This document shows positions 1 through 17,037 of a DNA stretch of 64,000 bases, in pieces. The DNA comes from an uncultured Porphyromonadaceae bacterium (lineage in GTDB: Bacteria; Bacteroidota; Bacteroidia; Bacteroidales; UBA12481), in the NCBI GenBank assembly GCA_964355105.1, contig CAYHCO010000018.1:5323-69322 (forward strand), given 5' to 3'. The translations under genes and the position numbers were made by a program. The notes beneath the pieces were generated by a model. It was given only the letters and a program-made list of their open reading frames with translations, made no database searches and was not told the origin of the DNA. Position 1 is the first letter of the stretch, and every line of letters starts with the position of its first letter.

Positions 1-227
1 TCCTTACTTTCCGGAACCGATACTGGAATTGAAACAAGGGGTTTACCAACCAATTTGCTTAACTCATAGGTTAATTTCCGGTGGTACTTAGCCTCTTTCC
101 CGGGAAATACCTTTTTAAGAATTTGGTTCCTACCCAGTCGGTCATAAAGTCCAATCCCGCTAAGATAATCCTGTTCAGAATCAAGCCAGGCAATAATTTG
201 AGACCTATCACTTTCTTGTAATGTCAT
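1..227 (-). CDS. hypothetical protein, N-terminal part (gene runs off the left window edge)
   Basis: An ATG at 227 on the minus strand opens a stop-free frame down to position 1 (75 codons, MTLQESDRSQIIAWLDSEQDYLSGIGLYDRLG...). It is absent from the ORF track because the window edge truncates it. No family recognised. Confidence 0.4.
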   Translation of the reverse strand, partial: MTLQESDRSQIIAWLDSEQDYLSGIGLYDRLGRNQILKKVFPGKEAKYHRKLTYELSKLVGKPLVSIPVSVPESK

Positions 228-238
228 ACGTAATATCG

Positions 239-260
239 AGATAGATGGCAAGATAGATGC
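239..260 (+). repeat. tandem direct repeat agatagatgG / agatagatgC, 12-bp register (possible recombinase arm-type sites)
   Basis: The 10-mer occurs at 239-248 and 251-260, about 110 bp left of the tRNA-Asn fragment. Confidence 0.35.
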
Positions 261-371
261 CTAATTGGCTTGTGGAAAGGACAATCAGGTAACTGGATAT
301 TTTTCAACTCCGTTTTAAAGCCCCAGGTACAAGGAAGGAGTGACGGAAGAACGTGTCAAATTAGACTAACA

Positions 372-418
372 TCTGGCTGTTAATCAGAGGATCCCTGGTT
401 CGAGGCCAGGATGGAGCG
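372..418 (+). pseudogene. tRNA-Asn(GTT) 3' fragment (anticodon arm to discriminator), attR-like remnant
   Basis: Anticodon stem tctgg/tcaga (372-376/384-388), loop ctGTTaa, variable ggatc, T-arm cctgg-ttcgagg-ccagg (394-410), then acceptor 3' strand atggagc plus g. The 26 nt upstream cannot form the complementary acceptor 5' strand or a D-arm, so this is not an intact tRNA. Confidence 0.55.
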
Positions 419-434
419 CGAAGAAAATGCAGCA

Positions 435-463
435 CTTACCTCATCTAACAGGTAAGAGTTTTT
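435..463 (+). terminator. rho-independent terminator following the tRNA fragment
   Basis: Stem cttacc/ggtaag (435-440/451-456), 10-nt loop, then agTTTTT. Confidence 0.5.
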
Positions 464-530
464 CCGTTTATGCCAGGGAGAAGAAGTTGTCAGAACAGAA
501 CATTCATGAAATCAGTTTTTGCAGCCGATT

Positions 531-1706
531 TCATTTGTACTCATAGAAAATCAAAATCGGATTGTCATTCTCATTGGTTGCCTTGACCAGGTCTAAAATG
601 GAGTCCTTGATTCCGGGCTGTTTGATAATCGATAGATTCTTATCGGCTTGAATAACTTTCTTATATTCTTCTTTAAAATCAAGTGCCTCAATAATATCAA
701 TAAGACCTTCATCCCAGGATCCCACGAAAAATCTGGTTTCGAACAGGGCAAGATCGTTCAGAAAGTTAGTTCGCTTAACGCTGATGGTATTGTTTGAAGA
801 GAGGTTTCCGAAGGCATAGTACATATCCCGGTTATAATCGTAACAAAAACTCAGGTTCTCATTTACGACCTTAATACCGCTAATTAGGCCTGGATAGCCT
901 TTTTGGGAGTTATCTCTCACAGCCGCTTCGAAATCTGTTGATTCTAACAAATGATCCGCCGGTATTTTCGTGTCAAATACAAAATCACAGACCTTCACCA
1001 GGTTCAATGCTGTATCAATACGGAATAAACCATGTTGGAAAATCGGAACCACGTAGGCATTTCTGTCCTTACTGAGGAATAAATTGCTGTGAGTGACAAC
1101 ACTTATGCTGCCAGGGATGGTTCTGATTCCTTCATATACTTTTAGAATCCGTCCCTGACTATTAAATATACCTAATACCATCGGCCCAATCGCATAATCA
1201 TCGGAAAAGAATGGTCCATTATAGCTGTAACCGATATAATTAGTTTCCGACAGTTTCTCAAAACCGCGCACCCAAACAGACCGGTTGGTTTTTATATACT
1301 TACCGCTATAGTCAAAAACCAAGATGCGTCTTGTTCCGGTATCGAGAATCTCAATCTGTTTTTTGGATCTGTTCAAAGTAAATCCCGCCGGATTAACCAT
1401 TTCGCCTGGCCCCTTCCCTTTAGTGCCTATTTTCGCAATAAAATGTCCATCAATGGTGAAAACAAAAAGGGTTTCCTGTCTGTTGTCATAAGCAAAAAGA
1501 TGGTCTCCATCTACTTTTAGTGTGCAGATACCACCAATCAAACATTCCGGACTGGTCTCCAGTTTTACCAGTTTAGCAGATTTAAAAATCTGGGAATAAG
1601 CAACTTTATCATTTGACTTCTCATGGATCCTAATAATATTCTGAGCATTGACAGAATTGATACAAATCAGGATCGGGATAAAAGTTGTAATAACCAATTG
1701 CCTCAT
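531..1706 (-). CDS. 6-bladed beta-propeller protein (BF3164-like), secreted
   Basis: 391-aa ORF with an N-terminal signal peptide. Repeated blade-like G-x-G-P-G-E motifs (GTKGKGPGEM) are shared with the paralogous ORF 4182-5348. Confidence 0.75.
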   Translation of the reverse strand: MRQLVITTFIPILICINSVNAQNIIRIHEKSNDKVAYSQIFKSAKLVKLETSPECLIGGICTLKVDGDHLFAYDNRQETLFVFTIDGHFIAKIGTKGKGPGEMVNPAGFTLNRSKKQIEILDTGTRRILVFDYSGKYIKTNRSVWVRGFEKLSETNYIGYSYNGPFFSDDYAIGPMVLGIFNSQGRILKVYEGIRTIPGSISVVTHSNLFLSKDRNAYVVPIFQHGLFRIDTALNLVKVCDFVFDTKIPADHLLESTDFEAAVRDNSQKGYPGLISGIKVVNENLSFCYDYNRDMYYAFGNLSSNNTISVKRTNFLNDLALFETRFFVGSWDEGLIDIIEALDFKEEYKKVIQADKNLSIIKQPGIKDSILDLVKATNENDNPILIFYEYK

Positions 1707-1972
1707 TCAGTGTTTTGTTGGATGTAATTCATAAATAGGATCACAGCTCAATATTGTCAACTGTGTTTTAATGACCATCTGTGGTTTTTTGTTTGGCGAG
1801 GTATATTGACAAGGCCTTAAAGTTAAAGAAATGTTATTGAACAGCAGTCTACTGAAATTGAGTTATTTCAATATCTCCGATTAGTTCAGGTATCCGTTTT
1901 TCATTGGAAGTGTTCGATGAGTAACCATGCCATCTTCCAGTTTTCATTCTCCTGTCTGTTGCGGATCGTCGC

Positions 1973-2171
1973 CTGAATGGACACCGACAGAAAACCAATC
2001 CTCGCCGGGCTAATTGACCACTTTCTGCCGAACCAGTTGATCAGTGGCCTCCGGAGTCATCTGACCGCCTGGATCATGGCAACCATCAGGCTTACAAATA
2101 CATATAAATGATGGATGAATCAACTCGGCTGGGACTGTTCAACATGTCCGTTTTATCCAATTCCTTGCAAT
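1973..2171 (+). repeat. R repeat, copy A (~200 bp, structured)
   Basis: Aligns over its full length, at roughly 85% identity by eye, to 5499-5700. It shares the nested inverted segments AGTTGAT/ATCAACT and CCATCA/TGATGG. Confidence 0.7.
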
Positions 2172-2261
2172 ATTTAACGTCAAGTAACTCTGAACACTCA
2201 TTGGTATAAAGTTAAAATGTGTGTTTCTCCTAACAAAGCAATGTCTTAGCCAATAAGCCTC

Positions 2262-2885
2262 TCACTTGGTCTTTACGCACCGGATTGAATATCCCCAAAC
2301 CTTCCACTCTTCATAAGTATGTAGAATATCATCACCCGAGGATAAATATCGGGAACAACCCTTATTTATTGGGGTTGCCGTGGATGAAGTCCAGAAATAG
2401 GCAAAATCCCTAAGTCCCATGAATTGTGTTCTGCCATTGGGATCCAGACTTTTACAACCGGAAGCACGTGCGCTGAATCCGCTTTCTCCCCTCACTACGG
2501 CATCCGGGCCATTCCAATGAGTATCCCCAAGTTCTTTCAGTTTTTCTCCTGCCTGATCATCCAAAAAAACTGCCAGCACCTTCCACTCCTGATCCGATGG
2601 CAGATGCCAGCCGGCCGGACAAACCTTCTGGGCAACAGACCATTCATACAATCTGCCATATGTCTTGCAATGGGTCGAATCCAGATTGTAGCAAAAGGAT
2701 CCCTTGGGTACCTCGAAATTCAGATTTTGTGCCATCCATGTTTGCGACCCAATCCGTATCCAGCGGTAGGTCTGATGATCTCGAAGATCTTCGAATGAAC
2801 CGGATGGTTCAATATTGACATCCTGTGCCTTTAACCACATCGGACCTAACAATAAGGTTGCCAGTATTAATATGCAAGTCTTCAT
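2262..2885 (-). CDS. FISUMP (Fibrobacter succinogenes major paralogous) domain protein, secreted
   Basis: 207 aa with a signal peptide. Motifs TWMAQNLN, YGRLYEW and CPAGWHLPSDQEW are typical of the family. Confidence 0.8.
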   Translation of the reverse strand: MKTCILILATLLLGPMWLKAQDVNIEPSGSFEDLRDHQTYRWIRIGSQTWMAQNLNFEVPKGSFCYNLDSTHCKTYGRLYEWSVAQKVCPAGWHLPSDQEWKVLAVFLDDQAGEKLKELGDTHWNGPDAVVRGESGFSARASGCKSLDPNGRTQFMGLRDFAYFWTSSTATPINKGCSRYLSSGDDILHTYEEWKVWGYSIRCVKTK

Positions 2886-2906
2886 CTTGTCGAAAATTGT
2901 TATGAA

Positions 2907-4172
2907 TTACTGAATATACATGGTATACAGGCTTTTATATCTCTGCTCCTGGCGATCCCGGAACATGAACCAAACTTGATTGTCATGGACTCTGACCTTG
3001 TCGATAAATGGATGGTCGGGAATGGAAATTTCCCTGATGATGGTCCCTGTTTCCAGGTTAAGTTCTTTTAGGGTGTACCGACCGGTTAGAGCCGTTCTCC
3101 AGATGGAATAGACTTTACCGGTTATGTCGTCCACAACAATATCCTGTGTGAAATTGACAACATCCAGGTCATAGGCCTTTTTACCCAGTTGGTCATAATA
3201 CATCATGGTATGAAACATGGTTGGGATCTTTTTAACCGACCGGCCTTTCTCATTGAAAAATTCTATCTCATTTGCAAAAAAATTGAACAGGACAATCTGG
3301 TTTTTGTAGGTAATGATGGGAACACAAACGTTCCTTTGCCTCAGATACCGCATATTCCCGAATTCATCATAGATATGTTTGACCCTCTTAATGGTATCGG
3401 TATTCCGTACAATAAAATAGGTGTCATTATTGTTCAAATCTGATTTCTGAAAAAACAGTTTCTCTTTCAACCGGCACTTAATGGGGAAAAGGTAGTTGTA
3501 GCAATCTTCATATTTACTGGGATAAATCAGGTAAATCTTTTCGTCTTTAAGAAAAACCTGCCAGACCTTTGTTTTGGCCATAAGTTGAATCTCACCATAC
3601 GTGTCTTTGAAGAGATAAATTCTTCTTGATGCCGGATCATCGGGAAATCTGATATCCTTACCCATATCATGCAGATTTCTGTAGGAAAAGATATATCCTC
3701 CCAGATTTGTCAAATAGATTCTTTGTTTGAGGGAGTCATTGGCAGACCTTGCCATGATCAGCAATCGATTGTTCCATATCTCATAATCCAGCACCTGCAG
3801 GCTGTCTCCTTCCAGAATGTTTCGGAATTTATCGCCGAAAACTGTGACTTCCCCAATGTTTCTGACTTCCGTAGTCAATAAAACTTTCATGGGCAGTGTA
3901 GTGCTTTCATCCACTGCAAATTGTCTGATACCATAACCCAGATAGCTAAAGATCAGCACAGCCTTTCGAGCCGGTAGTTTTAGCTTAAAAAATCCATCCC
4001 GATTAGTGGTTGTCCCGATATTCGAACCGGCAAGTGAAATATTCACGTTAACCAGGGGCGACATTCCGGCAGAATCGTAAACATACCCTGAGCAGGAAAA
4101 GTCAGCGATCTGGGAAAAGCAACTCATTGCAGCTAATGACACCCCGAAAAGTAATGTAATTGATTTTTTCAT
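2907..4172 (-). CDS. CarboxypepD_reg-like domain protein with unknown C-terminal domain
   Basis: 421 aa with a signal peptide. The N-terminal GYVYDSAG..PLVNVNISL..TTTNRDGFFKL pattern is typical of the carboxypeptidase-regulatory-like fold. Confidence 0.65.
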   Translation of the reverse strand: MKKSITLLFGVSLAAMSCFSQIADFSCSGYVYDSAGMSPLVNVNISLAGSNIGTTTNRDGFFKLKLPARKAVLIFSYLGYGIRQFAVDESTTLPMKVLLTTEVRNIGEVTVFGDKFRNILEGDSLQVLDYEIWNNRLLIMARSANDSLKQRIYLTNLGGYIFSYRNLHDMGKDIRFPDDPASRRIYLFKDTYGEIQLMAKTKVWQVFLKDEKIYLIYPSKYEDCYNYLFPIKCRLKEKLFFQKSDLNNNDTYFIVRNTDTIKRVKHIYDEFGNMRYLRQRNVCVPIITYKNQIVLFNFFANEIEFFNEKGRSVKKIPTMFHTMMYYDQLGKKAYDLDVVNFTQDIVVDDITGKVYSIWRTALTGRYTLKELNLETGTIIREISIPDHPFIDKVRVHDNQVWFMFRDRQEQRYKSLYTMYIQ

Positions 4173-4181
4173 GGCATAAAA

Positions 4182-5348
4182 TCAATTTCCTTTTGGAGTA
4201 ACCAGCATGATAACCGGATTGTCATTAACACTGCTTTTTTCCAACATCCGGATAAAGTCCAGCTGCCGGTCGGGATATTTCAATTCATTTTTTGTGTTTG
4301 GCTTCCAGTATTGCTTTAACATCACCCGATCGAAAAGCATATACAGTTTCCCGTCGGATGTGGTGCCAATGGGCCAGAAATCAGGTCCGCCATCAAAATC
4401 ATTTACAATTCTTGTCCTTTCAGGCAAAGTGACTGACCTGCGTGTATCCTTATTGTACAGATGCTGCCTGGTACGCCCTTGGTAGCTGGTTTCAAGATAG
4501 ATGTACTGATCCGATTCAAATATCCGCATAGGCATCCTGTATTTATCGATCAGTTTTCGATAACCCGGAGTGATAGGGCTGATGGGTAGGACTTTTGGGA
4601 GACGGTGTCTCCCCAGGTCGAGATAATATCTGGGTGTAACCTTAAAATCATCGCTGATCCTGTATACCGTGTCGCACAATCCTTCCCAGACGGTTGCACT
4701 ATCCCGGTATACATACCGTTGGGTATTCTGGACACTAAGATTATCAATATGATCCCATGTATCCTGATTAACTTTGAGCAGATTACAGACGGTAGTGCCA
4801 TTAAGGTCATTGATCACCACTCGATAGCCATTTGAGCGGGCAACCATCCGGGATGAATGGAGGTTTAAAACATTGTCGCTGCCAAATGGAGATGCATATA
4901 AACCGGATAGCACCGACTGCTCCCTGATCAGGTCCCCGTTTAGATTGAATTGCATCATTTTTCCCAGGCGGTCAAAAATGAAGAATGTTTCCCCGGTGGA
5001 ATCAAAATCAAAACCGGCTATCTCGGTATACTTGCCAGGTTCCTTTCCTTTGCCTGAGATTGAGTTCAGAAATCTTCCCTGCCTGTCAAATCGGAGAAAA
5101 GCTTTATCGGCAACGACTATATTATCTGAATTAGCGGCAATATGATGCCCGGGTCCACTGATCCTGCATTGATCGGTGGTTTCCAGAAAAATATATTCAA
5201 CCTCCTGTGCTATGTCTTTCAGGAGAACCGGCTTTTCTCTTTTCAACCCTTTGCCAACTTTTATTGTTTCAGGTTGTTGAGCGGATACGATAACAGGAAA
5301 TACAGAGAACATCCCGATCGTAATGAGCTGAATTAGAATTGTTTTCAT
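4182..5348 (-). CDS. 6-bladed beta-propeller protein (BF3164-like), secreted
   Basis: 388 aa with a signal peptide and a GKGKEPGKY motif. Paralogue of 531-1706. Confidence 0.75.
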   Translation of the reverse strand: MKTILIQLITIGMFSVFPVIVSAQQPETIKVGKGLKREKPVLLKDIAQEVEYIFLETTDQCRISGPGHHIAANSDNIVVADKAFLRFDRQGRFLNSISGKGKEPGKYTEIAGFDFDSTGETFFIFDRLGKMMQFNLNGDLIREQSVLSGLYASPFGSDNVLNLHSSRMVARSNGYRVVINDLNGTTVCNLLKVNQDTWDHIDNLSVQNTQRYVYRDSATVWEGLCDTVYRISDDFKVTPRYYLDLGRHRLPKVLPISPITPGYRKLIDKYRMPMRIFESDQYIYLETSYQGRTRQHLYNKDTRRSVTLPERTRIVNDFDGGPDFWPIGTTSDGKLYMLFDRVMLKQYWKPNTKNELKYPDRQLDFIRMLEKSSVNDNPVIMLVTPKGN

Positions 5349-5498
5349 TATAATTTCAGTATCGATGCAGATGGATTAACGACAAGACGCCAAAAAAACC
5401 TGGGGGATAATCAAAGGTAACAAAATGTGTTATATCCAAGAAGAACCCTTCCGAATTGTGTAAGAAAAGATGTTATCAAGATTTAAATGCAATAAAGT

Positions 5499-5700
5499 CT
5501 AAGTGGACCTGGCGACAGAAAAACCAAACCTCGCCGGGCTATTTGACCGCCTTCCGACGAACCAGTTGATCAGTGGTCGCCGGAGTCATCGGACCAGTTG
5601 GATCATGGCAGCCATCAGGCTTACAACTACAAATGGATGATGGTTTGATCAACTCGGTAGGGACTGGTCAACATGTCCGTTTTTTCCACCTCCAAGCAAT
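5499..5700 (+). repeat. R repeat, copy B (~200 bp, structured)
   Basis: Full-length match to copy A. Its right ~12 nt (cctccaagcaat) coincide with the first nt of the 820-bp duplication. Confidence 0.7.
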
Positions 5701-5729
5701 GAAAGAGAGAGACCAATTATCTGTGAATC

Positions 5730-5963
5730 CTATCCTTTTATTTTACCGCTCGCCTTCCGGACCTTCTTGTCCGGGGTTTCAGTACCGGGGTCCTCACCAG
5801 CAACCTCCGGTAACCTTTCCAGGTACGGCAGCCCCGCCTCATACAGGTCCCGGGCCGTCCCGACCGGTAGATTGGCGCCGGCAAAATCGACTATACCGAA
5901 CCGGGAAGTTTTAACCCTTCCCGGTTCGAGGCCGATCAGGCGGTAGTGCTCCTGCCAGCCCAT
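5730..5963 (-). CDS. hypothetical 77-aa protein (diverged duplicate of 8611-8844)
   Basis: Intact ORF that differs from the 8611-8844 product at roughly one residue in five. Its ATG overlaps the TAA of the upstream pseudogene (TAATG). Confidence 0.5.
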   Translation of the reverse strand: MGWQEHYRLIGLEPGRVKTSRFGIVDFAGANLPVGTARDLYEAGLPYLERLPEVAGEDPGTETPDKKVRKASGKIKG

Positions 5964-6508
5964 TACGGAATTATCGCAGCCGAGAGCGATATGCTCCCAG
6001 GGTATTCATACAGGCTGTGAGTCCGGTAGGTGAAGGTCATACCCAGACCCCGGCGACCATCGGTCGTGGATCCGGTTCCGGAGCCTTCCCCGGCAGAAAA
6101 CTTGGCCGAACGCAGCTCCCATCCGAGCAGGTATTACTGGTTCTGGTTGTCCTCGGCGATAAAGATCAGGTCTTAGTTCTTGTTGGCGTTCATAAACCCG
6201 AGCAGTTTCTTATTTAGGCCCGGGGCAAACACTTTCAGGGTAAGTTCATACCCTTTCCCACCCTCTTCGCCGATGGGGCTAATATCCAGCCGGGCGGCAT
6301 CCTCGGTGGTGTACAGCTCGTACATCCGTTTGCCGGCTTTCATGGTGATGTCCCCGGTGAGTGCACCGGCGGCATCGAGAGTGGCCGGCGTAGCAGGCTG
6401 AGTTGGCCAGGTTGCCACATCGTTCCAGAGACCGAAGTAGATTTTCTGGCCCAGTCCGCCCAGGTTCCTGCCGTCACTCAAAAGTTTTCCTATATCTGCA
6501 AAATCCAT
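5963..6508 (-). pseudogene. pseudogene of the 181-aa island structural protein (two in-frame TAA codons)
   Basis: Same length and frame as 8844-9389. The N-terminal 111 aa are nearly identical. GAG->TAA and AAA->TAA changes interrupt the frame (...NANKN* and ...NQNQ*). Confidence 0.8.
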
Positions 6509-6612
6509 TCAGCTCTCAGCCTTACAACTATCAAGGGATGATGGTTTTATTAACTCGGCAGCGAGAGGCCAATTCCCTTTGGCGAGGATTGGACAACCTG
6601 TCCGTTTATTCT
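6509..6612 (+). repeat. R repeat, copy C (3' ~100 nt only, with an inserted hairpin)
   Basis: Matches the right half of R (cttacaac...gatgatgg...aactcgg...tgtccgttt). It carries an extra GCCAA-ttccct-TTGGC hairpin (6568-6583) and starts exactly where the 820-bp duplicate ends. Confidence 0.55.
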
Positions 6613-6913
6613 ATTTTGGGTCAGGATGTTCAGTTTGCAATCGTGGACATTGGTTAACAATTTCGGCGGAAAGCGGGCAAAGTTGCACCTCTCCGCTCAT
6701 TAAAAAAAAGAAAGCGTTGAATTCCCCAACTCTGTTGTGTCATGGATTTTAAGTTGGTACAATCGGCGGCGCCGGCACTCCGCTTTGGGGTATAAAACGA
6801 TTGAAGAGTTTTATATAATAAATAGTATTCTTAAAAATGCCGCTTTGCTTAACTCAGACTCCGGTTATTGGTAGCAAGTCCAGTGCCACACTGTTGCTGA
6901 TTCTAAACACGGG

Positions 6914-8410
6914 TTATAACTTGTCTCCTTCGTTCTGCATCATAATAATCTGTTTCTCCAAGGTTTCAATTTCCGAGGGGCGGGCAGCATCTTTGTTAAT
7001 TATTTTGCCATTTTCATCAATCAACAAATACCAGGGAATTGCAATTATCCCATTTTCATTGAATATCCTAATCAAGTCATCCTTGAACTCTTGGCTAGCC
7101 CTAATGTGGTGGCCGTCGAGTTTGTAAAATTTGATCATTTCTTTCCATTGCTCTTCCTTGTCCTGTTTGTCAATGGAAATATAGAGGACCTCAAATCCTT
7201 TTGATTTCAAGAGAGTATCCAATGAATCCTTGTATTTAAATTCCGCTTTGCAAGGCCCACACCAAGTAGCCCACACATCGACGTAAACTTTTTTACCCTT
7301 AAACTTTGCTATACACTCTTCAAAAGTTGAAATATCATCGGCATTATCGATGAATTTCACCTGGTTACTGAAACTTGTTTTCGCTAGTTTTTGGTATTCG
7401 GCAACCGGATTGACCAATGGAATCAAGTAAGGAATTGCCATGCTTTGAGGATACTTGACATTAAATCTTTCGAAAATCGCTATCAATTCCTTTTCAAAAT
7501 TTTTCTGCAAGCACCTTTCATATATTAAAGAAGCAGCGAAAGTTTCAGCCATTTTCTTAGAGAATAACTTTTCAGATAATGCAATCGCCTCCGTGTATTG
7601 CAACCCTTTCTTTAAGCTGCTCTTTAATACCTTAAGATCACTTGTATCACCAAGATATTGTTGGTACTCTACATAATATTTTGCGTATTCAAACCATCTG
7701 GGGGATAGAAGATTTTTGGGGTCAACTGGAGGGTTTTTTTCGAAGATTTCCTTCCATTGTTTTTTTAATTCTGCCGGATAGATTGCAGGGTTAAAAACAT
7801 CTCCCCTATAGAGTTTTATAAGGGGAAAAGTTGAAAGCAGAGTGGAGAAATAACAGTTACGATCAATCAAAACTTCGTTAAAAAAACTCTCCGATATCGA
7901 ACCTTTTTCAAGTAATTCCTGGAATTTTTTTATTTGCTCATCCTTTTGCAATCTAACCTTTTCGGAGTAAAGAGAAAAATTCTCAGCCTCACCAATCCTT
8001 CCAAATTCCATTTGAACCAAATACGGTGAGGGTAGTTCGTTATATAGTTTTTGTCCAGCTTCATTCGGCCCTAAAATATTAAACAATGTTTTTCCATCCT
8101 TAAGTTCAAACGAAACCTGAAATGATTCACCTGGCTCGGCAATGATAAATCCATCAGTGAAGGAGGCATAGATTGTAATAACAGTAGGTTGTTCAATTTG
8201 AATTTGTAAAAGAAAAGTCCCATCTGCATTAATGACAATTGAATCACGGAATCCAGGGAATGGGAATCCGTTTATCGGATTAACATACTGTAATCGCGTT
8301 GGGACAAATCCAACTACCTTACCTTTGATCGTTACGGTATTATTGTCAGTACCATAAGCAGTAATCCTTCCGATGATTAGAAGAAAAAGAAGCAGTGATT
8401 TGATCTTCAT
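6914..8410 (-). CDS. TlpA/ResA-like thiol-disulfide oxidoreductase with long N-terminal domain, secreted
   Basis: 498 aa with a signal peptide and a C-terminal thioredoxin fold carrying WATWCGPC. Confidence 0.8.
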   Translation of the reverse strand: MKIKSLLLFLLIIGRITAYGTDNNTVTIKGKVVGFVPTRLQYVNPINGFPFPGFRDSIVINADGTFLLQIQIEQPTVITIYASFTDGFIIAEPGESFQVSFELKDGKTLFNILGPNEAGQKLYNELPSPYLVQMEFGRIGEAENFSLYSEKVRLQKDEQIKKFQELLEKGSISESFFNEVLIDRNCYFSTLLSTFPLIKLYRGDVFNPAIYPAELKKQWKEIFEKNPPVDPKNLLSPRWFEYAKYYVEYQQYLGDTSDLKVLKSSLKKGLQYTEAIALSEKLFSKKMAETFAASLIYERCLQKNFEKELIAIFERFNVKYPQSMAIPYLIPLVNPVAEYQKLAKTSFSNQVKFIDNADDISTFEECIAKFKGKKVYVDVWATWCGPCKAEFKYKDSLDTLLKSKGFEVLYISIDKQDKEEQWKEMIKFYKLDGHHIRASQEFKDDLIRIFNENGIIAIPWYLLIDENGKIINKDAARPSEIETLEKQIIMMQNEGDKL

Positions 8411-8610
8411 AGTTGGCGGTTGAGGTGAAATAATTGAAATCTCATAAAGTTAGTGAATTGTTAAACAGGTGGAGCCTTCCGGAAAAAACTGTGTTTACCT
8501 GTTTTCCCAGATCAGTCAGAAACACCCACCACAACAAGTAAGAAAGGCCCCCCACCTTCCGGCAGGGAGCCTCCAAGCAATGAAAGAGAAAGACCAATTA
8601 CCTGAGAATC

Positions 8611-8844
8611 CTATCCTTTTATTTTACCGCTTACCTTCCGAACCGGCATGGCAGGGGTTTCAATCACCGGTTCCTTATTGGAAGCCTCCGGTACCCTTTC
8701 CAGGTAGGGCAAACCCGCCTCATACAAGTCCCGGACCGTCCCGACTGGTAGATTGGGGTCGGCAAAATCGACCACACCGAACCGGGAAGTTTTAACCCTT
8801 CCCGGTTCGATGCCGATCAGGCGGTAGTGCTCCAGCCAGCCCAT
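8611..8844 (-). CDS. hypothetical 77-aa protein (last gene of island operon)
   Basis: ORF translationally coupled (TAATG) to the upstream 181-aa gene. A paralogous copy lies at 5730-5963. Confidence 0.6.
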   Translation of the reverse strand: MGWLEHYRLIGIEPGRVKTSRFGVVDFADPNLPVGTVRDLYEAGLPYLERVPEASNKEPVIETPAMPVRKVSGKIKG

Positions 8845-9389
8845 TATGGAATCACCGCAGCTGAGAGCGGTATGCTTCCGGGGTATTCATACAGGCTGTG
8901 AGTCCGGTAGGTGAAGGTCATACCCAGACCCCGGCGACCATCGGTCGTGGATCCGGTTCCAGAGCCCTCCCCAGCTGAGAACTTGGCCGAACGCAGCTCG
9001 CATCCGAGCAGGTATTTCTGGTTCTGGTTGTCCTCGGCGATAAAGATCAGGTCCTCGTTCTTGGTGGCGTTCATAAACCCGAGCAGCTTCTTGTTTAGGC
9101 CCGGGGCAAACACTTTCAGGGTGAGTTCATACCCTTTCCCACCCTCTTCGCCGATGGGGCTGATATCCAGACGGGCGGCATCCTCGGTGGTGTACAGCTC
9201 GTACATTCGTTTGCCGGCTTTCATGGTGATATCCCCGGTGAGTGCACCGGCGGCATCGAGAGTGGCCGGCGTAGCAGGCTGAGTCGGCCAGGTGGCTACA
9301 TCGTTCCAGAGACCGAAGTAGATTTTCTGGCCCAGTCCGCCCAGGTTCCTGCCGTCACTCAAAAGTTTTCCTATATCTGCAAAATCCAT
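8844..9389 (-). CDS. phage structural-like protein, 181 aa (paralogue of 11605-12078)
   Basis: Lies immediately downstream of the capsid gene. Shares NLGG(I/L), E(E/S)GG..YE.TL and D(Q/N)N..Y.L(I/L)G motifs with the 157-aa ORF. Confidence 0.7.
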   Translation of the reverse strand: MDFADIGKLLSDGRNLGGLGQKIYFGLWNDVATWPTQPATPATLDAAGALTGDITMKAGKRMYELYTTEDAARLDISPIGEEGGKGYELTLKVFAPGLNKKLLGFMNATKNEDLIFIAEDNQNQKYLLGCELRSAKFSAGEGSGTGSTTDGRRGLGMTFTYRTHSLYEYPGSIPLSAAVIP

Positions 9390-9422
9390 TTTTCCTGTAT
9401 TTTAAAGGTTAATGAACCCTGA

Positions 9423-10382
9423 TTACCCGCCAGGGGCAACAGTGTGTTGCAAGTTGGTCCAGACGGCTCCGTTCATGCCAAAACCGAGGCCTTCCCACCA
9501 GTCGCAGAGGAACGAGACCTCACGCTTGCTCTCCTCGATGGAGAATTTGGTTTTGTTGGCGCTCTTTTTGGTAATGTGCAGGAGGTTGTCCTTCGGTGTG
9601 GCAAAGATTACGTTGGTGCCGTTCAGGCAAGGAAGTTCAACCACGCGCTGGCTGGTAAAGTCGATGGATTCATCGACATCCTTGTCGGAGGTGCGGAAGT
9701 AATGCCCGCTGTCACGCTTGTCCCGGAGGTAATGTTTCCGCCAGGTCTGGGACATGAAGACCGACATTGGGATCCCCTGGTAAATTTGGTCGATCCCGTC
9801 GACGAATGCTTCCACCTGGTCATAGATGGAATCCTTGTCCAGGGCGCCGATATTGACCGGGTTGACGGTTTCATTGTCCACACCATGCTGAAGCTGAAAG
9901 ACAAGTCCGTTCATCCCAGAGCCCGTAACACCGGAGGTGCCAGCGGTCGGTTCAGCATACACACCCTTGCCATATTCAAAGAGCTCCATGTCCTGGTTGA
10001 TCTGCGGGATGTAACCGCGTTCAATCAGGAACTTGGCCAGCGGCCAGTCCTTGCGGGTGACGTTATCGGCTGCCAGGAACCCCAGCCAGGTAGCTTCCAC
10101 GTCGTCCGGGGTGAGATCCTCATCAACTTTGAAGTGGAATAGCCGGATCTCGTTCGGGGTGATGGCTGCAGCATTCCTCGGGGTCCAGCCTTTCTGGAAC
10201 GGCTGCACAATCCTCTGCAGGGAGAGCTTGGCCAGTTTAAAAACGGTATCGTCGGTTTTGATCGGCATGCACACGCCCGGGGTGACAAGACCCTGGGTCA
10301 GCATGGTTTTCACACGGGCCTGGTTCTGGCCCGAGTTCTCGTAATAAGCGCCAAAGGCGCTGATGATTTCATGAATATCCAT
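9423..10382 (-). CDS. putative phage major capsid protein
   Basis: 319-aa ORF directly downstream of the prohead protease/scaffold gene. Its length and pattern are reminiscent of P2-family capsid proteins. The fold was not verified. Confidence 0.65.
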   Translation of the reverse strand: MDIHEIISAFGAYYENSGQNQARVKTMLTQGLVTPGVCMPIKTDDTVFKLAKLSLQRIVQPFQKGWTPRNAAAITPNEIRLFHFKVDEDLTPDDVEATWLGFLAADNVTRKDWPLAKFLIERGYIPQINQDMELFEYGKGVYAEPTAGTSGVTGSGMNGLVFQLQHGVDNETVNPVNIGALDKDSIYDQVEAFVDGIDQIYQGIPMSVFMSQTWRKHYLRDKRDSGHYFRTSDKDVDESIDFTSQRVVELPCLNGTNVIFATPKDNLLHITKKSANKTKFSIEESKREVSFLCDWWEGLGFGMNGAVWTNLQHTVAPGG

Positions 10383-10409
10383 ACGGTTGGTTTGTTTGGT
10401 GGTTAGCGG

Positions 10410-11498
10410 TTAATAGCGATCTTCCTGCATGTGTGGCAGGGAGTTCAAAAGTTCCCAGTCAACCCCGTCCGGAGATGGGGTTTTGTCGCTCGCGGTTTGA
10501 ACGCCGGTAGGTGCAACGGCCGGTTTGGCGGCTAGAAGCATCCGGATGGCCGATACTTTCCCTTCAATGGTTTCTTCGGCGGCCACTTTGGGATCCAGAG
10601 CATTCAGGGCGGTAATTGCCGATTGGCGGTCCCCTATGGCCTGGTCCCGGTCAAGGGCAGCCTGGCGTGAGGCTTCAATTTCCTCGTTGAGAGCGGTTAG
10701 CTGCTCCTCATTCAGGTAGGTGCCCTCGGGGGTAAACTCAAGCGTTGGCACTCCCAGCAGAGAGTGCAGTGCGGTCAGGTTTTTCATATTGAGTATTTGG
10801 TTTACGGTGGTTTTAATAACCGGATAAATCTGGGTCAGAATCGTCTGTGTAGGCGGTTCTTCGCTTGTCAGGCTGACTATCGGTGAAGGTTGGCCGGCCC
10901 TGAGCGGTATTGGCAGGTTGGCGCAGTTGAGCATCGTAACAAGCTTTCGGTTCATGAGCGGGCTTTCCCCCAAAGGGGTCTCAAGAATCTCCTCAATGAA
11001 TCCCCAGGCCAGTGCTTCGTCTGCCGTCAGCCAGGTTTCCTGCTTCATCAGATCCAGAATCTCGGGGGTGGATTTACCGGATTTACGGGCATACATTTTT
11101 GCCAGTACGAGGGTGATCTTCTCAAGTTCACTTTTTTCCTTTTCCAGGGAAAGAATCAGCGCATCCAGATCATCCTCGTTCATGTTACCCCAGGTATCCA
11201 CCCATTGAAGGGCTTTGTGAATGAGGTAAAAGGAATTTGAGTGCATCTGGATCCGTCGGGCTCCTAGCGTTATGAGCGTGGCCGAACTGGCATTAAATGC
11301 CGTGAGGACGACGGTGACATTTCCGTGCTCCACAAACTGGTTATGAATGGCAATGGCGTGATCCACGTCACCCCCAAGGGAAGAGACCCGAATGGTCACG
11401 GGATCCTTGCCGCTGGAGGCGAGAAAATTCCGGATGAAGGATTTTGAGTACCCCCACCCTCCTATAAAGCCATCAATGTCCAATACGTGCTGATCCAT
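10410..11498 (-). CDS. ClpP/S14-family prohead maturation protease fused to a scaffold-like C-terminal region
   Basis: 362 aa. The N-terminal half has ClpP-like motifs (VSSLGGDVDHAIAIHN, FNASSATLITLG, YLIHKA). The C-terminal ~150 aa are Ala/Glu/Leu-rich and coiled-coil-like. Confidence 0.8.
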   Translation of the reverse strand: MDQHVLDIDGFIGGWGYSKSFIRNFLASSGKDPVTIRVSSLGGDVDHAIAIHNQFVEHGNVTVVLTAFNASSATLITLGARRIQMHSNSFYLIHKALQWVDTWGNMNEDDLDALILSLEKEKSELEKITLVLAKMYARKSGKSTPEILDLMKQETWLTADEALAWGFIEEILETPLGESPLMNRKLVTMLNCANLPIPLRAGQPSPIVSLTSEEPPTQTILTQIYPVIKTTVNQILNMKNLTALHSLLGVPTLEFTPEGTYLNEEQLTALNEEIEASRQAALDRDQAIGDRQSAITALNALDPKVAAEETIEGKVSAIRMLLAAKPAVAPTGVQTASDKTPSPDGVDWELLNSLPHMQEDRY

Positions 11499-11604
11499 TT
11501 TGTCCTCCCTGGAATACTACCCAAGCTTAATGGCACCAAATTACAGGCGCCGTGGGCCCCCAAAAAGGACAAAATCCCCGGAAACACAGGGATTGCCAGT
11601 TGGA

Positions 11605-12078
11605 TCAGAAGGGATTGGACATAAATATCGAAGGGTACGGAGAAGTCCCGGTAAATTCCAGACGGATGTGGTTCAGGTCGGAAATCTCAGCTCCCGTGTT
11701 TCTTGCAATACCCACCCTTAACGGATAGGCCTTGCTTCCAATCAAACGATAGAGCCCGTTCTGATCCAGGGTGAGAAGGCTCCAGCGCCCGGACTGCAAG
11801 TCCTCGAGGTATGCCTTGAGCGCCGGGGAATCCCTGGCAATGCTCAGGGATAGGGTTGACTCATAATAGGTTCCACCTGACTCTGTCTTACTCGTCTCAG
11901 AAAATCTTAGTGACTGGAAGATCGGAAGGATCTCCAGGCACTCCAGGGTAAACTCATCGGGTAAAAAAAAGCTATTGGGCTCGGCCGGTTGCCGGGTGAT
12001 GTCCGCCAGTGAGGATGGTATAGCCCATACTTTGGCTATCCCCCCAAGATTGTTGGTGCTTTTGGGTGTTACGTTCAT
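11605..12078 (-). CDS. phage structural-like protein, 157 aa (paralogue of 8844-9389)
   Basis: Shares motifs with the 181-aa protein (NNLGGIAKVW, ESGGTYYESTLSL, DQNGLYRLIG, RLEFTG). Confidence 0.6.
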   Translation of the reverse strand: MNVTPKSTNNLGGIAKVWAIPSSLADITRQPAEPNSFFLPDEFTLECLEILPIFQSLRFSETSKTESGGTYYESTLSLSIARDSPALKAYLEDLQSGRWSLLTLDQNGLYRLIGSKAYPLRVGIARNTGAEISDLNHIRLEFTGTSPYPSIFMSNPF

Positions 12079-12628
12079 ACTCTTTTAGGGTCAAATTCCC
12101 AACTGTCCCAATTTCGGACAGCTGGGTCAAAAATATTTTGGTCAGGTTTTCGGAAATGGTGTTCTTGAAGTTGAACCGATGGACCGCTGCATGCCGCATA
12201 AAGTCCTTCCGGATGGATTCATGGGGCCAGGTATCTTCCGGGATATCGAAGTCGAGGGTGAACCGGTCGATGGCCGTTTCCAGGTTCCCGTAAAAGGTGA
12301 AGTTGATGGCCACAATCACGTGCATCATGTGTTTAAAGGAGCGCTCCACCTCTTTGTTGAATACGATGGCCCCGATCCGGGAGAGGTCAAAGCCAACCCT
12401 CAGAAAGTCATCCTCGGAAAGCAGGATCGAAACGGATTGGGAATAGATCTGTGCACTGAGTCTGCGCGCCGGGTACTTGTCTCTCCTCTGGTTATGAAGG
12501 AGAAGCTTCAGTAGCGGCAAAAACGGGTTGTCCCCCTGGTAGAGGTTCACCGGGTTCCCGAAACTCTGAACCAGGTAATGCCTGACATAAGGCTTACAGG
12601 GAATTTGTAATGAAAAATCTGATTTCAT
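11972..12628 (-). CDS. hypothetical protein, 218 aa
   Basis: Long ORF in the operon with no recognised family. Its 3' end overlaps the next gene by 107 nt. Confidence 0.5.
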   Translation of the reverse strand: MKSDFSLQIPCKPYVRHYLVQSFGNPVNLYQGDNPFLPLLKLLLHNQRRDKYPARRLSAQIYSQSVSILLSEDDFLRVGFDLSRIGAIVFNKEVERSFKHMMHVIVAINFTFYGNLETAIDRFTLDFDIPEDTWPHESIRKDFMRHAAVHRFNFKNTISENLTKIFLTQLSEIGTVGNLTLKEYERNTQKHQQSWGDSQSMGYTILTGGHHPATGRAQ

Positions 12629-12695
12629 GCGGCTTGAGGAATGGTGGTGTAAGGTGACATCGTATGGCTTTTTGATAGGAAATCTGTTCGGTCAT

Positions 12696-12914
12696 CTATT
12701 TCCGGAGTTCTTCAAGCAAGCTGGAAAGGGAGTACCGGTCAGAATGGTCCTGTCCATACAATTTGCACACTTCACTGTTCTTACCCCAGGTGTATGCCGT
12801 CCGGATCATCGATTGGACTTCTTTGTTTTGAAGCAGCTTGCGCCTCTTAAGACTTTGGCTCAGCAGTTCTGTGGGGTTGAAGGTCAGGATCCTGGTTACG
12901 AAATTTAGGTTCAT
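12696..12914 (-). CDS. hypothetical small protein, 72 aa
   Basis: ORF co-oriented with the island operon. No family recognised. Confidence 0.4.
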   Translation of the reverse strand: MNLNFVTRILTFNPTELLSQSLKRRKLLQNKEVQSMIRTAYTWGKNSEVCKLYGQDHSDRYSLSSLLEELRK

Positions 12915-13028
12915 AAAGTTCCCAGTTTATTGATTAATGTGTTAGTCAGTAGGCGGATAGCCTTTTGCTAAAAGAAATGATTGCAGCCAGATGGCGATCA
13001 CGGGTGACTGCCCGGACCTGAAAAAGCC

Positions 13029-13262
13029 TCATGCTACTTTAAATGAGAATTCGTCCCTGTCAAAAACCATAACACTGCCGTCCTCAAGCTCTATGATAGC
13101 TTTAAGGGGGTCCTGGCTATCCGGGTCGTAAATCCATTCATGAAACGCTCCAAGGTCTTTCTCCACGAGGGGTGACCCATCATCATGGGTGGTACAGTAT
13201 CTACACTCCACGATCCGGTAGCCCATTCGTTTCATCTTCTTCGTCCATTGTTTTGTTGTCAT
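13029..13262 (-). CDS. hypothetical small protein, 77 aa
   Basis: ORF co-oriented with the island operon. Contains a CRYC pair. No family recognised. Confidence 0.4.
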   Translation of the reverse strand: MTTKQWTKKMKRMGYRIVECRYCTTHDDGSPLVEKDLGAFHEWIYDPDSQDPLKAIIELEDGSVMVFDRDEFSFKVA

Positions 13263-13521
13263 ACCAGTTTCTTCTAAGGTGGTTTCTTATTGTTGTTTTG
13301 GGGTTCCCGTTAAAAGGCTGTTGTATTACGAGGATCCTGTAATCCGAGGTAAAATACAGATCACGGAGCCATTCCCCGTCCATGAGTTCCTTGACGGCTG
13401 CGATAAACCGTTCCGGTTCCTTGAGGGTATCAACCGGGTAGCGGCCCGGCCTTAGGGCTCTCACCTCTACAAATACTCGGTCCAGGTAATCCATCAGAAA
13501 AAAATATATGGCTGCTTCCAC
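13201..13521 (-). CDS. hypothetical protein, 106 aa
   Basis: ORF co-oriented with the island operon, first gene after the ori region. Overlaps the next ORF by 62 nt. Confidence 0.4.
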   Translation of the reverse strand: MEAAIYFFLMDYLDRVFVEVRALRPGRYPVDTLKEPERFIAAVKELMDGEWLRDLYFTSDYRILVIQQPFNGNPKTTIRNHLRRNWYDNKTMDEEDETNGLPDRGV

Positions 13522-13545
13522 AGGTGCTATCTTTCAGAATTCTTT

Positions 13546-13731
13546 GGAACAGTCGGAACAATGATTGTAACTTATTATTATATAGTTATTTATTTTAAAA
13601 AAGTCTGTTCCAAAGGTGTTCCAGGCTGTTCCCATCTGTTCCAAAGTGTTCCGTATCGTTCCCAGTTGTTCCGGAGAATAACTTCCGGAATGATTTATTA
13701 TCCATGGTGTTCCGTCTGTTCCGTCTGTTCC
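13546..13731. other. putative replication origin (iterons flanking AT-rich segments)
   Basis: Two inverted GGAACA sites (13546, 13555) precede an AT-rich 13561-13603. Seven direct (T)GTTCC follow at 13607, 13618, 13628, 13638, 13648, 13658 and 13668 (10-11 bp phasing). An AT-rich spacer with palindrome ttccggaa is followed by three more GTTCC at 13709, 13718 and 13727. The region lies immediately 3' of the primase/helicase gene. Confidence 0.65.
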
Positions 13732-13780
13732 GGGCGTAATTTCTTCTGGATGGGTTCATAAAATTTTTCAGTTATTAGGG

Positions 13781-16700
13781 TTAAAAGGGCAATTCGCCAG
13801 TAACCGATTGAGAATCTTTCTTTTTAGGCTCATCTTGTACCTTGGTAATCGATGTTTTTTCACTTTGGTCTTCTGTATGCAGGCTTACCTCGAGTTTGTC
13901 GTAATCGAAACAGTAAGCCCATTGAGGTTTGGTCTGATAAACCCCTTCCTGACCCGGTGTCGGATCAATAAACCGGAACCGGGTTCGCTTTTTGCCATAG
14001 TAACGCTTGTCATTTCTAAGGTAATAATCAATGGAATCGGTCGGCAAAACTTTGTCTCCCGCGGATTTGCCATGTTTTCGATAGAGAAGGTAGATGCGGG
14101 ACATCTGGATCAACAGGACATTGACCGGAAACTCGAACTCCGTTTTCCGCACATCGGTCTCAATGGTCCTCTGGCATTCGATCTTATAATCAATTCCTTG
14201 CTGAATAAGACCGTCCGAAGCCAGGAAGTTGACCATGTTCCAGAAGTTTGCTACTTCGCTTGATCGCTTGGTCTCAACATTTTGTAGCTGTATCTGAGAG
14301 GCCGCCTGACCAATCAAGTCCTCATAACTGAAAGCCACCTTGAGGTTCTTTCGGATGGCATGAAATGAGGCCAGCAAGATCAGCCAGTTGCGGAAAATAC
14401 GGTCCTCTATCACCACATCTTCGAGGATCTTGTTCAGCTCAACGGCAACCTGGTCATAACTGGTGGCAAAGTTGACGATGAAGTGGCTTCTCAGTCCCAG
14501 GATTTCGTTGGTGATATGGGTATTACCGAGTTGCTCAATTTGCTTTAGTTCATTGAACCGGGCCTTGGCGGCCTCGTCAAATTCAGCGGTGGTAAAGGTC
14601 AGGTAGACAAGACGGGAGAACAGGGCGATATCTGCCGTTGGCATTTCCTGCCCTGATAGGATTACCCCGCAATCGACGGCCGTGGTTTCCTTCTTCTTGT
14701 CTTTATCCATGTTCATCCGGGTCCTGCCGGTACCATCCCATAGGCCTTTCAGAAACTCAATTTTCTCCGGCTCGATGTTGTTCTTGTACTCGTCGATATG
14801 GACACAGGCGTTGGCCACGGTAGCCACATGGTCCGCCAGTGCGGCTTTAGAAGTGTTGTTGATATTGGGCCCCTTCCCTTGCCTGCCAAAGAAACTCATG
14901 AGGGAAACGGCCAGCTCCGTTTTGCCGGCTCCCTTAGGCCCAAAGAGGTTCAGGATCGGAAAAAAATGAAAACGGCCGACAATAACGTCCCTAAACAGAC
15001 TGGCAATGAAAAAACAAAGCGCAATGGATGCATTGGGCCCGAAAACGCCAATGAGTTTTTCGGAATAAGAATTTAGTGTGATGGTATTGGTATCCCGGTG
15101 GATGAACTGACGTTCATTAATGAAGAGCCCGAGTTCATTGGCATAGGTTCGCGAGAAGGCCGGCAGGTAAAAGTTGGTATCCTCATGCTTGACGATCCCG
15201 TTTTCATCGACCGAAGTGAATCGGGAATTAAAGATTCCGTTTCCCCAGGCAAAGAACTGGTCTTTTTGCCAGCCCAGTTGCGTGATTTCGAGGCAGGATT
15301 CTGTTTCCTCGTATAGAAACCGCTTCAAGCGGTTCAGCTCGACCTCGGAAGCTTCCCAAAGGAAGTTACCGAGGGATTCAATACGCTCCTTGAAGCGGAC
15401 CAGGGAAACCAGGTCTTTTTGCGGAAGTTCGATCACACGGCTTTTCCCCCGGTGGTTGGTGATGGTGAAAAGGCGCTTGGCGTTGAGGGTGGATTCTATG
15501 TGGAACAGGGGTTTCAGGACAAAATTGCACCCCCTGATAATGCCCTTGGAAGTATCGAAAAAGTAACAGTTATTGTCTTCATAGAATCCATAATTGTCCC
15601 AATCCACAAGACTGACATGGTCAGGTATTTTCTTGAAGTCTTTATCATGAATTTCTTCGGATGCATTGTCCCGGAGGATCTCACGGATTTTATCCTTGAA
15701 AGCTTTCTTGGGTTTGATCAGTCGCCCTACCTGCTCGATGTAAACTTCATGACTTGAGGCACTGAGCTTTGATATCAAGCCTGATATTTCCTCGATGGCT
15801 CTGAGCTTAAAATCCGGTGCATGGGCCCGATCCTGCCATTGGGTTGCCAGATCCACGATATAATCACGAATGTGGGTTTTAACGGTTTCCTTGAACTGCT
15901 GTTCGTCAGTAAAGTAGCTGTCCGGATCCACCTTTTCCCCTTCATCGGACGGAAGACGAATTACGTTGCAATTCATTCCTTCCTCAATGATCAGACGGGC
16001 TGAACGGTCGACGGCCATCTGGCCGGCTTTGTCGGTGTCCCCGATGATCGTGATACTGTTGCAAAGTTTTTTAAGCTCCAGGATCTGCTCCCTGGAAAGG
16101 GCTGTTCCGGATGAAGCAACAGTTTCCAAAATACCAATCTGATGCAGCCGGATAACATCGGCATTCCCTTCTACCAGATAGGCAAACCCTTTATTCTTGA
16201 TCGTATGGCAAGCCCAGTTCAGGCCAAAGAGCGCTTTGCTTTTATAGTACACCGGGGTTTCCGGGGTATTGAGGTATTTTGCTTTGGCCTCAGGATCGAA
16301 GGATCGGCCGGTGAACCCGATGATCCGGCCATATTTGTCATGAATCGGGATCATGAGGCGGTTCCGGAAGAAGTCATAGGCTCGTCCATCCATTTTTTGA
16401 CTCTCTTTGATCAGTCCGGCTTTGAAAAGGAATTCACTTTTCATACCTGCCTTTTTCGCGGCATTGATGAGTCCGTCCCAGGATTCCGGAGCAAAACCTA
16501 TTTCCATACGCTTGAGGATCTCTTCGCTCCAGCGACCCCGGGCATATTCCAGGGCACTGTAGTGTTCCGGCAGGTACAGGCAATCCTTAAAATAGGATCC
16601 GGCAAAGGAGTTAACAATGTACAGGGATTCGATTTGGTTCTGGGCGGCCTTTTGATCAGGTGAAAGGCTCTCTTCCAGGATGTCGATTTTGAACTTTTGG

Positions 16701-16957
16701 GCTAGTTTACGACAGGCATCGATAAAGGATACCTTTTCGACTTCCATAACGAATTTGGTGGCATTCCCGGCCATCCCGCATCCGAAGCATTTGAAGATGT
16801 TCTTGGCCGGGCTGACCGATAAACTTGAGGATTTCTCATGATGAAACGGACAGGGTCCAAGCCAGTTTGCTCCTGATTTTTTCAACTTTACATAGTCCTG
16901 GACCACCTCCAGTACTGGTAATGCCGTGATCTGCTCGATAACATTTTGTGGGATCAT
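13781..16957 (-). CDS. DNA primase / helicase fusion (Zn-finger CHC2 + Toprim + P-loop NTPase), P4-alpha-like
   Basis: 1058 aa. Contains CPFHHEKSSS...CFGCG (zinc finger), VEGNADV...GDTDKAG (Toprim) and Walker A GPKGAGKT in the C-terminal half. Confidence 0.9.
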   Translation of the reverse strand: MIPQNVIEQITALPVLEVVQDYVKLKKSGANWLGPCPFHHEKSSSLSVSPAKNIFKCFGCGMAGNATKFVMEVEKVSFIDACRKLAQKFKIDILEESLSPDQKAAQNQIESLYIVNSFAGSYFKDCLYLPEHYSALEYARGRWSEEILKRMEIGFAPESWDGLINAAKKAGMKSEFLFKAGLIKESQKMDGRAYDFFRNRLMIPIHDKYGRIIGFTGRSFDPEAKAKYLNTPETPVYYKSKALFGLNWACHTIKNKGFAYLVEGNADVIRLHQIGILETVASSGTALSREQILELKKLCNSITIIGDTDKAGQMAVDRSARLIIEEGMNCNVIRLPSDEGEKVDPDSYFTDEQQFKETVKTHIRDYIVDLATQWQDRAHAPDFKLRAIEEISGLISKLSASSHEVYIEQVGRLIKPKKAFKDKIREILRDNASEEIHDKDFKKIPDHVSLVDWDNYGFYEDNNCYFFDTSKGIIRGCNFVLKPLFHIESTLNAKRLFTITNHRGKSRVIELPQKDLVSLVRFKERIESLGNFLWEASEVELNRLKRFLYEETESCLEITQLGWQKDQFFAWGNGIFNSRFTSVDENGIVKHEDTNFYLPAFSRTYANELGLFINERQFIHRDTNTITLNSYSEKLIGVFGPNASIALCFFIASLFRDVIVGRFHFFPILNLFGPKGAGKTELAVSLMSFFGRQGKGPNINNTSKAALADHVATVANACVHIDEYKNNIEPEKIEFLKGLWDGTGRTRMNMDKDKKKETTAVDCGVILSGQEMPTADIALFSRLVYLTFTTAEFDEAAKARFNELKQIEQLGNTHITNEILGLRSHFIVNFATSYDQVAVELNKILEDVVIEDRIFRNWLILLASFHAIRKNLKVAFSYEDLIGQAASQIQLQNVETKRSSEVANFWNMVNFLASDGLIQQGIDYKIECQRTIETDVRKTEFEFPVNVLLIQMSRIYLLYRKHGKSAGDKVLPTDSIDYYLRNDKRYYGKKRTRFRFIDPTPGQEGVYQTKPQWAYCFDYDKLEVSLHTEDQSEKTSITKVQDEPKKKDSQSVTGELPF

Positions 16958-17037
16958 TGAAATCAGGTATTGCGCTGGGAAGGGTATAAAAGCTTGGGGT
17001 TATCCAAGGACATTTTGTGGAGCATGGAGGAATCCTG

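Follow-up and report, generated by a model that had tools for sequence, protein, structure and literature searches.

A repeat of about 200 bp, hereafter R, is present in three copies (A, B and C), all in the same orientation, in a 64-kb stretch of DNA (the window) located on contig C18 of a 97.5%-complete, 4.4-Mb assembly (G000) of an uncultured freshwater Bacteroidales bacterium. Here, our comparisons suggest, with a probability that we place at about 0.8, that R consists of the fused left and right ends of an element of the IS21 family of insertion sequences (ISs) without the istA and istB genes, i.e. a non-autonomous derivative resembling a miniature inverted-repeat transposable element (MITE). 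An earlier interpretation made from the letters of the window (the sequence-only reading) had proposed that R is a MITE-like foldback element, an attachment (att) or target sequence of a neighbouring island family, or a small RNA gene; the first of these proposals was essentially right, the two halves of R being homologous to IS21 left and right ends.

Homology of R to the ends of IS21-family elements

Our family alignment comprised 17 full copies of R from six genomes, representing four or five sub-families and two genera. A sequence-only covariance model built from these copies was searched over 401 genomes of the order and, outside the bacterium's own taxonomic family, revealed half-length matches flanking a two-gene unit. 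The first gene of this unit encodes IstA (514-519 aa; NF033546 IS21 transposase, E about 1e-66, above the curated cut-off), and the second encodes IstB (245-255 aa; NF038214, E 1e-72 to 1e-79). In four genomes, cmsearch aligned R positions 4-110 colinearly with IS21-family left ends, starting at the identical terminal TGGA. These matches were found in G152 (locus L121, 4562-4716, E 2.6e-12, ending 16 nt before the istA start at 4732), G098 (E 2.6e-10), G248 (E 6.6e-10) and G389 (E 6e-9), the last of which also displays a degenerate third unit, TTGATCAG, as in R. At the opposite side, R positions 98-217 matched the right end located just after istB in G230 (L117, 3102-3221, cmsearch E 1e-5).

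Units of ~23 nt with the pattern GCCGG-N6-TTGACCACC make up R, four at the left and two or three, inverted, at the right, in the order L1-L4, a 34-37-nt spacer, inverted R3, (R2) and R1. L1 aligns with the reverse complement of R1 over ~29 nt, constituting a terminal inverted repeat, and the right end of A and B contains only R1 and a degenerate R3. In the full IstA/IstB elements, the left end carries three or four of the same GCCGG-N6-TTGACCACC units as direct repeats, and the right end carries them in inverted orientation; the right termini of these full-length relatives are ambiguous or cut by contig ends. IS21 ends have been described as arrays of multiple direct repeats (L1/L2, R1/R2) that terminate in CA, with two complete repeats per end required by IstA (PMC10122671). 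R resembles the IS21 family (IS21, IS5376 and others, with the transposase encoded by istA and the AAA+ helper by istB) in its 5'-TG...CA-3' termini and in ends that are each made up of several directly repeated copies of a single unit, with opposite orientation at the two ends. It differs from the family in its size (~0.2 kb vs 2-2.7 kb), in the lack of istA and istB, in its four left-end units rather than the two usually described, in the absence of a retained 4-8-bp target-site duplication and in having no partner element in its own genome.

Copies of R in the window and in its genome

Copy A (1978-2159, plus strand) reads as a complete ends-only element of the IS21 type and covers positions 2-210 of the family model (nhmmer E 2.9e-50), with L1-L4 at 1978-2072, the spacer at 2073-2109, R3 at 2110-2129 and R1 at 2130-2159; R2 is missing, and the termini are TGGAC...ATCCA. 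Copy B (5504-5688, plus strand), also matched by the nhmmer family model and complete in the same sense, comprises L1 (5504-5532), L2 (5533-5555), L3 (5556-5578), L4 (5579-5601), the spacer (5602-5635), R3 (5636-5658) and R1 (5659-5688), with R2 again missing. Copy C (6509-6613, plus strand) retains only the right-end half (model positions 101-208, nhmmer E 8.9e-18), namely a spacer remnant (6509-6536), R3 (6537-6559), a degenerate R2 (6560-6583) and R1 (6584-6613), and its terminal CA is mutated to TA. C is truncated within the central spacer rather than at a terminus of the transposon. The direct repeats A and B share 85% identity over 181 nt, and a search of the whole assembly with B recovered A at E = 1.7e-53 and C at E = 1e-8; C matches only the 3' half of A and B, at 72-79% identity in two blocks separated by a 24-nt insert. 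All three copies are thus located at the positions given by the sequence-only reading.

Searches for R in the genome and its relatives yielded further copies, both in the relatives described below and on contig C6 of the same assembly, where four more diverged copies or fragments were identified. One of the C6 copies adjoins a 36-nt truncated tRNA-Met fragment. This fragment corresponds to the 5' half; an intact tRNA-Met gene is located 6.5 kb from it, with a right-end fragment of R ~220 nt upstream of the intact gene (locus L015, G000:C6:155000-171590; features at 6232-6270, 12357-12502 and 12724-12799). A candidate for one R nested within another at this locus (L015 7685-7966) was too weak and was not used. 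In the window, the 12 nt that follow the terminus of A (2160-2171, plus strand; ATTCCTTGCAAT) share 8 of 12 bases with the 12-mer that follows B, and GCAAT, resembling this flank of A, is found at an equal offset after one R copy in G027. Positions 2160-2171 may represent a sub-family tail of R or a chance match.

R as a multi-copy, non-coding family

R is a discrete non-coding element of 185-210 nt with sharp 5'-TGGA...TCCA-3' ends. Its distribution is patchy: matches were found in 8 of the 29 genomes of the taxonomic family (1-11 per genome), and many members of the genus carry none. Across the 17 aligned copies, the flanks are entirely unrelated and the ends are sharp (5'-TGGAC...TTCCA-3'), with TGGA...TCCA termini in all but one. 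The majority of copies are ~210 nt long; A, B and one other copy are without the ~24-26-nt R2 unit, which most family members keep and C keeps in degenerate form. The blocks GCCGG, TGACCACCT and GGGACTGGTCAAC are near-invariant across genera while the centre is variable, and half copies are frequent, with breaks that fall in this variable centre. The orientation of R relative to its neighbouring genes was mixed over the 17 loci; the earlier observation that each copy lies downstream of the 3' end of a minus-strand gene thus holds in the window but not for the family. Scans of a genome-contig and a metagenome-contig collection found only 7 and 3 stretches with R, respectively, all from one small clade, and no parent element.

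The coding capacity of R is limited to unconserved open reading frames (ORFs) of at most 45 aa. Because the copies differ by many 1-nt indels, a reading frame was excluded and R was classified as non-coding. The 44-45-aa plus-strand ORFs of A and B were rejected as coding candidates on the same grounds, being interrupted by 1-nt indels between copies and lost in others.

Clusters of five or six copies or fragments per 12-13 kb, in both orientations, were observed in accessory regions at L043 (G011:C46:6118-18972) and L165 (Ga0209417_1006598), and the genes neighbouring the former encode HipA-like, ankyrin-repeat and AAA_14/DUF4143 proteins. An internal-deletion variant of R, in which model positions 51-91 are missing, is common to G011 and G027.

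Rearrangement junctions at the copies of R

A pseudogenised 820-bp copy (5689-6508, minus strand) of the last genes of a capsid/protease/primase island is wedged between B and C. It shares 87-92% nucleotide identity with its intact counterpart at 8570-9389 (minus strand), and its 181-aa gene contains two TAA stops, with 97% protein identity to the intact gene. The last base of B (5688) directly adjoins this duplicate, which ends at 6508, immediately before the start of C at 6509. The first 12 nt of the island fragment (5689-5700, plus strand; CCTCCAAGCAAT), right after the CA-3' end of B, are identical to 8570-8581, so the joints and the shared 12-mer were confirmed as originally noticed. CCTCCAAGCAAT was located only at 5689 and 8570, and either represents the beginning of the duplicate or reflects microhomology to a tail found in a sub-family of R. 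Since independent public metagenome contigs cross both junctions (X1 and X2 extending to 5924; X3, X4 and X5 over 6509), with no alternative joints, the junctions are not assembly artefacts. In the closest relative (G028), island homology runs ~25 nt to the left of 8570; the CA-3' end of B is therefore joined to an internal position, in the 3' untranslated region of the island. C was cut in its spacer at a 3-6-nt microhomology with the start codon of an island gene.

A further break is located at the 5' terminus of A, where the 3' remnant of a serine-recombinase (resolvase) gene (1853-1977, minus strand; last ~40 codons) is cut exactly. Contig G023:C553 is 96% identical to window positions 1-1977. 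At the point where A begins in G000, the recombinase reading frame of this contig extends further. The recombinase ORF of G023:C553 is itself a 125-aa fragment, and a full-length homologue matches Pfam Resolvase (E 4.5e-25). Many genomes of the genus contain these ~125 nt (1853-1977) at 84-91% identity (L148 1340-2086; L147), and in G016 and G022 an intact recombinase gene is found ~750 nt from sequence matching window positions 377-476.

R termini coincide with synteny breaks at three places, namely the 5' end of A, the 3' end of B and the contig C6 copy at the truncated tRNA-Met, in agreement with the earlier claim that R sits at rearrangement junctions. Transposon-end repeats are classic substrates for deletions and duplications. 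The presence of R at breakpoints would thus follow from its nature as a relic of mobile DNA with IS21 ends, as would the local mosaic of truncated genes (resolvase remnant, island fragment and tRNA fragments).

Proposed origin and mobility of R

We propose that an IS21 copy would have lost istA and istB by internal deletion, its left end becoming joined to its right end through a short spacer, and that this single deleted derivative would then have been amplified by IstA and IstB supplied in trans, i.e. behaving as a MITE. In support of a single origin, all 17 full copies share one internal junction and a homologous central spacer (e.g. a conserved AGGCTT block), and one deleted derivative was probably amplified in trans. 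The mobility of R as a short element is what we infer from these sequence comparisons. Later, the copies would have served IS-end-mediated adjacent deletions or recombination with one another.

Several points weigh against this interpretation. None of 16 full copies carries a target-site duplication of 4-8 bp, even with a shift of up to 3 nt allowed (0.7 expected under the null), and these 16 include a pair that is near-identical by eye. Neither the relatives nor eight metagenomes yielded a clean empty site, and no joints skipping R were seen; the match to the 96%-identical relative stops precisely at the 5' end of A, whose opposite flank is not shared. Tblastn and hidden Markov model searches of the bacterium's own assembly found no IS21 transposase or IstB, which is weak evidence because metagenome-derived assemblies often lose IS copies. 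The IS21 copies present in R-bearing genomes of the same family showed no R-like ends by nhmmer; the ends of the elements in G007 and G016 are similar to R at the motif level only, below nhmmer detection. The copies of R are few and diverged, with 63-91% identity by blastn and in comparisons of repeats, which sets them apart from a recent MITE burst. Finally, the units of R are predicted as IstA-binding sites by analogy with IS21. Overall, the observations are consistent with old copies that exchanged their flanks, either through recombination with one another or through adjacent deletions mediated by IS ends, and such events would explain both the position of R at junctions and the lack of target-site duplications. 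In its own genome, R is probably represented by immobile relics, since istA and istB were not found, A and B are one right-end repeat short and C is truncated.

We consider it unlikely that R is still mobilised in trans by circulating IstA/IstB. In such a case, it might act as a portable recombination module that shuffles secreted-protein cassettes (DUF5128 propellers, Fib_succ_major and CarboxypepD_reg), with A and B forming a composite unit round a 3.3-kb block, and it would be the first MITE family traced to IS21. Slightly less probable is a history in which each R is a full IS21 copy that lost its genes where it sat and never moved in its short form. This history would accommodate the missing target-site duplications, the lack of a cognate transposase in R-bearing genomes and the age and divergence of the copies, but independent deletions would differ from copy to copy, whereas the internal junction and spacer are common to all 17, and no intermediate-length copies were seen.

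Relation to known elements

Gene-less IS derivatives (MITEs) are well known, and bacterial MITEs and intergenic repeats include Correia/NEMIS, RUP, ERIC and IS630- or IS5-derived MITEs. R is like bacterial MITEs in being short, intergenic and non-coding, in its terminal inverted repeats and foldback potential, and in its multiple copies with unrelated flanks, patchy distribution and association with rearrangements. It differs from them in its copy number (at most 11 per genome), high divergence, lack of target-site duplications and parent family, IS21. Our full-text literature search retrieved no paper describing an IS21-derived MITE, and gene-less derivatives of IS21, a two-protein system, seem undescribed in the literature searched. 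Our interpretation replaces a candidate novel RNA or att site with an ordinary explanation, in which R is an ordinary kind of mobile-DNA relic. If gene-less IS21 derivatives are indeed undescribed, R would supply naturally occurring minimal ends, some that have the second right-end repeat and some that lack it, as substrates for work on end recognition by IstA, which is a modest point.

The attC sites of integrons carry the core motifs GTTRRRY and RYYYAAC. R resembles them in its imperfect inverted repeats after gene cassettes and in TTGACC and GGTCAA, each one base off the core motifs, but the motif order is reversed and R is at least twice the length of attC; moreover, no integron integrase is located near R, and the motifs are explained by the IS21 units. 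Integron attC, retron and Tn7-like ends were dropped as candidates once the IS21 match appeared.

The secreted-protein block and a possible host function

A and B bracket three minus-strand genes, encoding Fib_succ_major, CarboxypepD_reg and DUF5128 proteins, as the sequence-only reading had recognised. Parts of the Fib_succ_major and CarboxypepD_reg genes (window 2486-3135) are represented among the metatranscriptome contigs of two samples, and this accessory block is thus expressed in situ. At L045 (G027:C2), positions 3685-7886 hold a paralogous or orthologous Fib_succ_major/CarboxypepD_reg/DUF5128 block with 40-49% protein identity, followed by two R copies 380 nt apart. With blastn, no match to R was obtained for a more similar orthologue of the block (G027:C1, L146; 81% nucleotide identity).

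Co-option of R by the host as a cis-acting DNA element, i.e. a recombination or regulatory module near secreted-protein genes that is kept by selection, appears improbable. About half of the R loci contain Fib_succ_major or DUF5128 genes within 3 kb, in G000 as well as in G027 the DUF5128 gene of the three-gene block has a copy of R upstream, and the near-invariant blocks flanking a variable centre could be taken as a sign of selection across genera. However, the mixed orientation of R relative to its neighbours and its complete absence from many genomes of the genus argue against such a role. Moreover, the conserved blocks are the transposase-site units of true IS21 ends, and constraints on transposition would therefore explain their conservation. 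A promoter or 5'-leader function, considered for A and B as both lie upstream of paralogous DUF5128 genes, was rejected given the mixed orientation over the 17 loci.

RNA structure and transcription

A structured small RNA gene with a 3' part that serves as an integration site, as in tRNA and tmRNA genes, is very improbable. The arrangement of a full B, an island fragment and the 3' half C does resemble a regenerated gene with its displaced 3' end, a short GGAC...GTCC stem with a T-run after it forms the end of R, and folding of either strand gives slightly negative z-scores (mean about -1.6). The nested helices that had been described as conserved were found only in A and B, which are already 85% identical, and not family-wide. 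Over the 17 members, 58.6% of the cells of the two proposed helices pair, a value reached by 432 of 500 shuffles, and there is no excess covariation. These helices are pieces of the inverted ~23-nt units, the pair AGTTGATC/GATCAACT being L3 facing R3. In C, the hairpin that was thought to replace that of A and B is in fact the degenerate R2, lost from A and B, and represents the ancestral state in degenerate form, because the majority of the family keeps R2.

Rfam held nothing relevant, either at the gathering score over the whole window or at E up to 10 over 1800-6800. RNAalifold yielded a weak consensus of -6 to -7 kcal/mol on both strands without covariation, and an exhaustive scan for stacked conserved pairs returned invariant inverted motifs only. 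The upstream flanks are unrelated and reveal no conserved promoter. In two small metatranscriptome sets from the same samples, with very low depth, no contigs were found on R, while contigs were present on the neighbouring Fib_succ_major and CarboxypepD_reg genes. Every conserved block is explained by IS21 homology, and the small RNA proposal is thus not supported. R is like tRNA and tmRNA integration sites in that an island-derived segment lies between a full copy and a 3' half, but unlike them it shows no RNA features, other islands are without R and the joint lies inside the island.

The island next to copies B and C

Of the 29 genomes of the family, 11 contain matches to the 181-aa protein of the island, as many as 7 in a single genome. 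The island occupies window positions 8570-18914 and was retrieved at 28 loci in other genomes (among L057-L086), where the 181-aa protein is 68-92% identical. Across genomes, the occurrence of the island does not correlate with that of R: G012, G016, G021 and G023 carry the island without R (4-7 island matches, some of them fragments), and G011, G024, G025 and G026 carry R without the island.

The proposal that R is the att site of this island family, for which the exact placement of the island fragment between B and C, the 12-mer shared by the flank of B and the island, and its 8/12 likeness to the flank of A would speak, is as improbable as the RNA gene, given that, the window's own fragment excepted, the 28 other island loci retrieved (11 genomes) all lack R within 1.5 kb, that the two are distributed independently, that no integrase was seen in the window's island copy, that the joint at 8570 is internal and not a true island end, and that C is truncated in its spacer at a microhomology and not at a shared core.

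A second repeat near copy C

Another repeat family, of ~140 nt, is represented at window positions 6742-6884, between C and a TlpA-like gene. Members with 76-92% identity occur in at least nine genomes of the genus, with one further member in the bacterium's own genome (C37:2790-2864), and the G027 member and a DUF5128-like ORF overlap at the 5' end of the latter.

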